Source of the DNA: an uncultured Acidobacteriota bacterium
GTDB taxonomy: Bacteria > Acidobacteriota > Thermoanaerobaculia > UBA5066
Assembly (NCBI GenBank): GCA_963836285.1
Contig: CAWIIN010000002.1
Location: 1,650,386 to 1,714,385 of the forward strand
Length of the DNA stretch: 64,000 nucleotides
Reading direction: 5' to 3'
The position numbers were made by a program, and so were the translations under genes. A model generated the notes under the pieces. That model worked only from the letters and a program-made list of their open reading frames with translations. It was not told where the DNA came from and searched no databases. Shown here piece after piece: positions 32,531-34,689 of this stretch (within the stretch, counting starts at the first letter, position 1; every line of letters begins with the position of its first letter).

Positions 32531-34689
32531 TCAGTTCATCGAAACCTTGGAGCCCTTGACGACGACGTCCGAAGAAGCCTTGATGTTGACCTTGCCGCTT
32601 CCGGAGATCGTGATGTCCTTTCCCTTGATCGTGATCGTTCCGTCCTTCTTGAGGATGATGCTCGCATCGCCGGTCTGGAGCTGGATCTGGTCTCCCGCAA
32701 TCAGAGCGAACTTCTTGCCGACCTCGATCTCGTCGTCCTTTCCGACCTGAATCTTGGAATTCCCGCCGATTTCGAGCGTGTCATCCTTGCCGATGCTGCT
32801 CGTGCGGCTCCCGTCAACCGTCAGCGTCTCGTCCTTGCCGACCGTCGAGGATCGGAGGCCGCCGATCGAGATCGTCTCGTCCTTCTCGACGCTTTCGGTC
32901 CGAACGCCGCTGATCGAGATCGTCTCGTCCTTGCCCACGGATTCGGTCCGGTTGCCCCCGATGGAGATCGTCTCGTTGCTATCGACCGTCTCCGTCCGGT
33001 CGTGCTTCACGTGCGTCGTCTCGTCGTGATCGATCGTCTTGGACCGGTCGTGTCCGACCCAGTGCGTCTCGTTCGCCTCGACCTCGATGTCCTGGTTCTT
33101 CTCGGCGTGGATGAAGAGCTGCTCGCTTCCCTTCTTGTCCTCGAACCGGATCTCGTTGAAGTTCGCCGGGGTGCCCCCGAGGCTGCTGCGGCTCTTGAGG
33201 CCGCTCTGCGTCTTGTGCGCGGGCAGGCCGTACGGCGGCATGCACTCGGCGTTGTAGACGCTCCCGATGACGATCGGCTGGTCCGGGTCGCCTTCGAGGA
33301 AGTCGACGACGACCTCCTGGCCGATGCGAGGGATGTGGATCGCGCCCCACTGTTTGCCGGCCCACGGCGTGACGACCCGCACCCAGCAGGAGCTGTCGCT
33401 GTCCTTTTTGCCTTCCCGGTCCCAGTGGAACTGGATCTTGATCCGCCAGTACTTGTCCGTGAAGATCTCTTCGCCCGGAGGCCCGACGACGACGGCGGTC
33501 TGGGTGCCGTGGACGGTGGGGACGGGGGTGAGGCGCGGCGGGCGGAACGGGAGCCCGGCCGGGAAGCAGGAGAAGTTGTTCCGGTAGGAGAAAGAGCCGA
33601 CGCCCGAACGCAGGTCGGCGGCGTCGTTTGCGACGTGCTCGACCTCATAGACGACCCACGAGCCGTCGCCGTCGAAATGGCGCTCGAGCGTGAACGTGTG
33701 GCCGGAGACGATCTGGCGGCAATTGCTCGCGGCGTTGACGAGGACGCTCGCGGCGGCCTGCTCCTGCATGCGGACCTCGGCGGTTCGCAGGTTGTCCTGG
33801 AAGATCTTCTGGATGTCGGCGGGACGGTCTCCGCCGCCCGGCTGGATTCCGTCGAATCGCTGCGCGTAACCGCCGGGATAGTCGTAGAGCTCGAGCTTGG
33901 AGTTGGCGGAAAGCTTGAGCTTGTGGCTGGACTTGCCGGCGGCCACGGAATCCTGGATCTGGTGCATGCCCTCCAGGTGCTTGTGAGGCAGCTCGAAGCA
34001 ATGATCCCAGAGCGTCACCTTGCCCGAGCGCAGCTCCTGGGACTTCTCCCAGGCGAGAACGCGGTCTTCCTCGCGGGTCCCGCCGCCGACGGTCTCGAAG
34101 ATGAGCGCGTTCTTGCCGGGGAGCGCGGGGTGGCTCCCCGGGGTGTTCGCGACCACCATCGTGTGCGAGCCCGCGGCGTGCTTGAAGAAGTAGAAGATCC
34201 CCTCTTCTTCCATGAGGCGGCTCGCGAACGCGAAGTCCGACTCGCGGTACTGCACGCAGTAGTCGCGGGGGGAAAAGCCCCCTGGATCTCCCAGGAGACG
34301 TCGAGACCGGCAAAAACCTTCTTGAGGACGTCGGGCACGGAGATCTGCTGGAAGATCCGGCTCTGCGTCTTGCGGGCGAGAAGAAAATGCATCGGGACGA
34401 GGTCGAGCACGAAACGCGTGAACGTCGCGTCCCGCGCCCCCTCGGCGACGCGCAGGCACGCCCCGTTGAGGAAGCGCGATCCGCCGCCGGGCAGGGCGAT
34501 CTCGACCGTGATCTTCTGCCCGAGCAGCGCGTCGAAGGCCACTTTCGTCGCGTTCTCGGCGACACAGCGGAGATGGAAGGAGAAAGGCCGCGAGATGGCC
34601 TCGTGTCCCGAAAAGCCGTTCAGGAGGAGAACGTCGGGTCCCAGGGGAGTCGTGATCTTGAGCCGGCGGCCTTCCTGCTTGTAGGGCAC
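32531..34689 (-). pseudogene. vgrG: vgrG paralog (canonical spike, no C-terminal extension) interrupted by a +1 frameshift at about 34270
   Basis: GTG start 34689 (VPYKQEGRRLKITTPLG), nearly identical to the intact vgrG N-terminus. Reading switches frame at GGGGGGAAAAGCCCCC. The intact paralog has GGGGGGAAAGCCCCC at the same place, one A fewer. The gp5-like C-terminal beta-helix repeats are present. Confidence 0.7.
33010..34689. repeat. Paralogous vgrG 5' segment (copy 1 of 2, the other at about 37010-38691)
   Basis: The two vgrG genes encode near-identical N-terminal segments of about 560 aa, with highly similar DNA. They diverge at the C-terminus. Confidence 0.7.

Follow-up and report, generated by a model that had tools for sequence, protein, structure and literature searches.

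A full T6SS cluster occupies positions 39447 to 63418 of the 64-kb stretch of DNA analyzed here (the window), and its TssA, TssB, TssC, TssE, TssF, TssG, TssH, TssK, TssL, and TssM genes were full length as judged by Pfam matches, as were two Hcp genes and those for TagF, FHA, and ImpE. Two vgrG paralogs are present, both on the minus strand. One of these, vgrG2 (35983 to 38691), is intact. Its 902-aa product is an "evolved" VgrG, whose C-terminal residues 727 to 896 match the Peptidase_M91 domain and include an HELGH metalloprotease motif. The other copy, vgrG1, extends from a GTG start at 34689 to a VgrG stop codon at 32531-32533.

The vgrG1 gene belongs to an effector module, all of it on the minus strand. 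Directly upstream lies an intact PAAR-domain gene (34751 to 35296), whose 181-aa product aligned over 181/181 residues with the ortholog in a related locus, L081. Downstream lie genes for a 337-aa DUF2169 adaptor (31501 to 32514), a conserved 351-aa protein with only a weak ketoacyl-synthase N-terminal match (30437 to 31492), a 128-aa Tox-PAAR-like (DUF4150) protein (30046 to 30432), a 293-aa AHH nuclease toxin (29160 to 30041), and an Imm11 immunity protein of ~196 aa (28576 to 29163), all of them intact. The association of vgrG1 with a DUF2169/DUF4150-AHH module, made in a preliminary description of this DNA, thus holds. L081 and a second related locus, L082, share the module, with genes for PAAR, a 719-aa VgrG, DUF2169, the ketoacyl-synthase-like protein, Tox-PAAR-like, AHH, and Imm11 plus two more genes. 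L081 is the syntenic ortholog of the vgrG1 locus (83% amino acid identity); when it was compared with the window, nine of nine neighboring genes were full length and collinear, and vgrG1 alone was split over two frames. The 351-aa protein gene (6195 to 7250 in L081) is kept between the DUF2169 and Tox-PAAR-like genes in both L081 and L082, and its product may be an uncharacterised accessory component of the effector module.

Organization of vgrG1 and the missing base

The gene falls into two segments. Codons 1 to 141 (34267 to 34689) are in the authentic frame, and residues 1 to 141 of the L081 VgrG matched them in frame -2 by tblastn. The start codon is intact, as is a Shine-Dalgarno-like motif, GAGAGG, upstream of it. 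Codons 142 to 719 (32531 to 34266) follow in the -1 frame and encode the rest of Phage_GPD together with Phage_base_V, Gp5_trimer_C, and Gp5_C. Translated as written, the 5' segment would instead run into 83 junk codons and a stop at 34017-34015 (the out-of-frame tail, 34015 to 34266). The source record annotates only a 574-aa fragment (P0010) in the 3' segment, called from an internal GTG.

When the frame was repaired, the resulting 719-aa protein matched PF05954 (residues 29 to 356, E value of 9e-80), PF04717, PF22178, and PF06715, the full VgrG domain set, and was 83% identical to an intact ortholog, P0001. The repaired protein therefore has the parts that define VgrG/TssI (Phage_GPD, an OB-fold Phage_base_V domain, and gp5 C-terminal beta-helix repeats), and its gene has the expected neighbors, with PAAR upstream and DUF2169, Tox-PAAR-like, AHH, and Imm11 downstream. 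What vgrG1 lacks, as recorded, is a single uninterrupted reading frame, and the break falls in the middle of the Phage_GPD domain.

The preliminary description had attributed the break to an extra A in copy 1, in a comparison of two strings, and had stated that VgrG1 is cut off after about 140 codons. Both strings exist in the minus-strand vgrG paralogs: GGGGGGAAAAGCCCCC is at 34267-34282 on the plus strand (copy 1), and GGGGGGAAAGCCCCC is at 38270-38284 on the plus strand, the comparison site in vgrG2 (copy 2). The interruption is also real as the sequence is given, with the original frame lost after codon 141. The direction of the change is the reverse of that described. The gene strand is CAG GGG GCT TTT CCC CC- CGC GAC in copy 1 and CAG GGG GCT TTC CCC CCT CGA GAC in copy 2, so that copy 1 has one base fewer, not one more. 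The paralogous repeats are 4001 apart below the site and 4002 apart above it, in agreement with a one-base shortfall in copy 1. The frame breaks at 34267 to 34272, where the gene strand has C6 (G6 on the plus strand) and an intact frame needs seven; the run covers codons 140 and 141 (CCC CCC). The A4 singled out earlier is a T4 run on the gene strand (34273 to 34276), made up of the third base of GCT (Ala138) and a TTT Phe codon. Copy 2 has TTC here, so the T4/T3 difference between the copies is a synonymous Phe codon change and not the lesion. Shortening A4 to A3 in silico, the repair (and the refutation) proposed earlier, left the frame broken and the gene not intact. Nor are the copies "near-identical": their DNA identity is ~88% over ~1.5 kb, and their protein identity is 89% over codons 1 to 141.

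Around the site, the runs on the gene strand are G5-C-T4-C6, so that the C6 run abuts other runs. A single base inserted in silico into C6, T4, or G5 regained the 719-aa open reading frame. Of these three changes, only that from C6 to C7 gave GAFPPRDY, as found in copy 2 and in P0001 and P0002, the closest orthologs. A compositional frame model applied to the whole window placed the switch of coding frame at 34277/34278, 263 nt ahead of the out-of-frame stop. At the lesion, the plus-strand G-run (34267-34272) has contracted from 7 to 6. For follow-up work, the informative length is accordingly that of this G-run (7 versus 6) and not that of the A-run.

Everything else about vgrG1 is intact. 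Within the 578 codons downstream of the shift, we found neither a second lesion nor an in-frame stop. In comparison with copy 2, dN/dS was 0.19 for codons 1 to 141, 0.10 for codons 142 to 224, and 0.1 to 0.27 up to codon 480; in comparison with L081, it was 0.20 upstream of the shift and 0.17 downstream. With dN/dS at 0.10 to 0.21 downstream against 0.19 to 0.20 upstream, the multiple lesions and relaxed downstream selection of a decaying pseudogene are thus not seen, a pattern compatible with a newly arisen one.

Across the window, frame-to-frame switches without a coincident stop codon were limited to vgrG1 among ~55 coding segments. The other coding G/C runs of 7 to 8 nt were in frame in seven of seven cases. 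G/C runs were under-represented: 29 runs of at least 6 nt were observed against 53 ± 7.5 expected under a first-order Markov model, and 9 runs of at least 7 nt against 14.7 ± 3.7 expected.

Two further ideas about the site were set aside. A stretch of ~32 nt that ends at the site is the same in both copies, as a patch of gene conversion or of cross-polishing between the paralogs might leave; such runs are expected by chance at 88% identity, and the residues SWEIQG occur in other orthologs (P0013), so we rejected this explanation. We likewise rejected expression of the 574-aa fragment by re-initiation, or as one part of a split protein, because its GTG is not preceded by a Shine-Dalgarno-like motif and the split would lie within the Phage_GPD domain.

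The site in relatives and the source assembly

We inspected homologous sequences at the site, and 46 of 46 were in frame through ...RDYCVQYR. In L081 and L082 the site reads TTC CCG CCG CGC, with no C-run, and in a third relative, L083, it reads TTC GCG CCC CGC. Where vgrG1 has FPP, other close orthologs show FAP, FQP, or FPT and thus no Pro-Pro pair. The C-run was absent from the five closest proteins read. As far as these comparisons go, the C-run is a derived, lineage-specific feature of vgrG1.

Searches for a closer independent copy of the locus returned distant relatives. The best match in a scan of GTDB species representatives had 61% identity, and two metagenome DNA scans gave either nothing or relatives at 53 to 58% only. 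A protein search yielded orthologs at no more than 83% identity plus the source's own fragment, and a query restricted to the junction yielded only short protein fragments at no more than 79% identity. The closest relatives of the lineage are uncultured MAGs (Acidobacteriota-like and other) or metagenome contigs. The annotated fragment P0010 and VgrG2, which appears in the protein collection as P0026, are on one contig of 2,423,598 bp (NCBI and ENA). A contig of 2.42 Mb from such an uncultured lineage points to long reads, and the source is probably a MAG assembled from them.

Only one relative, L083 (ENA ERZ25039539, contig_35136; 95% identity), is at strain level; it has a Flye-style contig name and an indel-rich consensus. 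Over window positions 32951-48671, L083 is a mosaic. Blocks at 34337-39449, 46950-48671, and 32951-33200 are identical to the window, the first of them showing 9 mismatches and 0 gap columns in 5.1 kb. Divergent blocks have ~8% mismatch and ~2% gap columns and hold nearly all of the indels: 33200-34336 (1.1 kb) has 102 mismatches and 29 gap columns, and 39450-46949 (7.5 kb) has ~506 mismatches and ~117 gap columns. TssF and ClpV are broken into fragments in L083. The mosaic indicates one of two things, recombination between strains that co-occur or a consensus drawn from mixed strains; the confinement of the indels to the divergent blocks points to the latter, that is, to what may be a strain-mixed long-read consensus at the locus. 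One block boundary, at ~34337, lies within the conserved 5' part of vgrG1.

The vgrG1 site is 55 to 65 nt inside a divergent block of L083, where the sequence is garbled; it reads CAGGGGCTATTTCGCGCCCCGCGAC, without the C-run and with a one-base excess of its own nearby. Because the site falls in such a block, L083 is unable to arbitrate between C6 and C7, but it shows that the locus is hard to call in data of this kind.

Origin of the missing base

The preliminary description listed sequencing or assembly error, a genuine pseudogene, and phase variation as explanations. These are the right candidates; phase variation found no support, and error and pseudogene are the two still in contention. 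Both an artefact and a fresh knockout are well-known, ordinary kinds of event.

The explanation we favor, at about an even chance, is that the missing G/C is a homopolymer under-call in a long-read metagenome consensus. Under this explanation, vgrG1 would be complete and selectively maintained and the record one base short, with G6 in place of the expected G7 at 34267-34272. We infer the artefact from several lines of evidence. Restoration of C7 gives exactly the residues of copy 2, P0001, and P0002. There is no decay: dN/dS is low, neither the start codon nor the Shine-Dalgarno-like motif is damaged, and nine neighboring genes are full length. Also in favor are the kind of indel and its direction, the three runs that adjoin at the site, a contig that likely derives from long reads, and strain heterogeneity at the locus. 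Frameshifting homopolymer indels that split genes are the typical residual error of Nanopore consensus sequences, especially below ~40x coverage (PMC9262707), and vgrG1 shows just such a one-base homopolymer indel in an otherwise intact gene. An identical "C6 for C7" case in long-read Pseudomonas genomes was flagged as a possible error (PMC12369383). As in long-read (Nanopore or PacBio) under-calls, a gene that is otherwise perfect and lies on a megabase-scale contig is split by one base too few in a G/C run; unlike in those cases, the rest of the 64-kb window is clean, and the platform here is deduced from the contig. We found no similar error among the ~55 coding segments of the window, and the seven coding G/C runs of 7 to 8 nt that are in frame indicate that homopolymer calling in this assembly is generally good, which counts against an under-call. 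The full-length Pfam matches of the T6SS core genes also count against an under-call, as does the fact that genuine slippage mutations arise at sites like this one.

Since an under-call is the most likely cause, the organism probably has an intact 719-aa VgrG1 that would serve the DUF2169/Tox-PAAR-like/AHH module. If so, both spikes of this genome work, its AHH nuclease can be delivered, and the 574-aa "VgrG" fragment in the record is wrong.

A genuine mutation is the main competitor, and we grant it a substantial, if minority, probability. Replication slippage from C7 to C6 would have produced a very recent null allele, a young pseudogene, which all or most of the sampled population may carry; in that case the AHH module would not be loaded, and polarity would probably lower its expression. 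Such a loss could be tolerated because vgrG2, in the main cluster, would still supply a spike. The lesion is, after all, present in the record, and the source annotation (P0010) reflects it. That the window holds no other frameshift, with its seven other long coding G/C runs read correctly, and that it contains a second intact VgrG are consistent with a mutation, and the C-run, being derived and absent from L081, L082, and L083, would be a new mutational hot spot. In other species, moreover, a vgrG paralog is frequently found mutated or deleted, as with vgrG1 in P. paraeruginosa strains (PMC12369383) and an IS-disrupted vgrG (PMC2627896). In vgrG1, as in degraded auxiliary vgrG paralogs, one vgrG is broken but the core system and a second vgrG are not; in contrast to those genes, it has one lesion only, selection is not relaxed, and the cognate toxin and immunity genes are kept. 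The 578 lesion-free downstream codons and the dN/dS values, which are not raised, speak against a null mutation, as does an indel of the type and direction expected of a long-read artefact. With no damage to the toxin, immunity, adaptor, or PAAR gene, a null event would have to be extremely recent. If real, it would represent a very young loss of one effector-delivery route with the toxin/immunity pair intact, an ordinary snapshot of T6SS module turnover.

Slipped-strand phase variation, in which the G/C tract would toggle between 6 and 7 and so switch VgrG1 and delivery of the AHH nuclease off and on, stands only a slim chance. As in the contingency loci of Neisseria, Haemophilus, and Campylobacter, a coding G/C homopolymer would set the ON or OFF state: the break lies within such a homopolymer, a one-step change restores the full open reading frame, and all requirements of the ON state are intact. 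SSR tracts in the contingency loci of those genera are typically 8 or more. The vgrG1 tract is shorter than these (6 to 7 nt) and, unlike them, is not conserved, being replaced by CCG CCG in L081 and L082, by GCG CCC in L083, and by codons for residues other than a Pro-Pro pair in the other close orthologs. G/C tracts are not enriched in the window either, and the rarity of runs of at least 6 nt (29 against 53 ± 7.5) leaves no sign of contingency-locus design. A literature search found no precedent for tract-mediated switching of a vgrG gene.

More broadly, G5-C-T4-C6 could act as a functional switch through replication, RNA-polymerase, or ribosomal slippage, with a minority of cells or transcripts making full-length VgrG1; we consider this very improbable. 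The AHH-nuclease spike would then be deployed only stochastically, and vgrG1 would be the VgrG counterpart of the tssM1 frameshift of Citrobacter rodentium. Absence of the run from the closest relatives, the lack of enrichment of G/C runs, and the lack of a canonical heptamer make programmed frameshifting and phase variation alike unlikely.

Programmed recoding, by a -1 tRNA-Pro slip on CCC CCC or by RNA-polymerase slippage, would yield some full-length VgrG1 along with a 224-aa product, and we find it scarcely credible: although a -1 shift on the second CCC re-pairs perfectly on paper and gives ...GAFPPRDY..., the same as the intact protein, the zero frame (GCU UUU CCC CCC GCG) has no X XXY YYZ heptamer, which leaves a single-tRNA slip on CCC as the only conceivable kind; the fold of the 117 nt downstream appears unremarkable (z = -1.8, with 8/200 shuffles as good; z = -0.5 for the copy 2 equivalent); and the shift is not conserved, given the 46 in-frame homologous sequences and the five closest proteins without the run. 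Transcriptional frameshifting does rescue one T6SS gene, tssM1 of C. rodentium, where it has been experimentally demonstrated at an A11 run conserved in Yersinia tssM3 (Gueguen et al. 2014, PMC4256274). Like tssM1, vgrG1 is a T6SS structural gene interrupted at a homopolymer, with a frame that slippage could restore; unlike the A11 of tssM1, the runs here are C6 and T4, and the C6 run is a lineage-specific, putative slippage site.

Other features of the window

Upstream of the T6SS region are genes for two Ser/Thr protein kinases (13071-14888 and 15548-16735, both on the plus strand) and a PP2C phosphatase (16725-18203, minus strand), and an FHA-domain gene lies within the cluster (59421-61310). 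Together, these genes suggest threonine-phosphorylation control of the T6SS. At 50968-50982, the plus strand carries G7 A G7, that is, two C7 runs on the minus strand (CCCCCCCACCCCCCC); they are ~25 to 45 nt upstream of the second hcp ATG (~50940), in the leader or promoter region. A 490-aa open reading frame containing TagF_N (51044-52516, minus strand) shows no coding GC3 signal over its last ~470 nt (51044-51516), which may mean that the open reading frame overstates the length of the gene or that the C-terminal part has an unusual composition.

Elsewhere in the window, a formate dehydrogenase alpha-subunit gene (7923-11000, minus strand) encodes a Tat signal, MGLTRRTFLKAG, and contains, within DTQARV*HGPTVASLAATFGRGAMTNGW, an in-frame TGA at 10410-10412, the canonical selenocysteine codon. 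This TGA is genuine recoding and has no bearing on vgrG1. The gene is followed by genes for an Fer4 beta subunit (7013-7909), a cytochrome b561 subunit (6296-7012), and FdhE (5319-6125).
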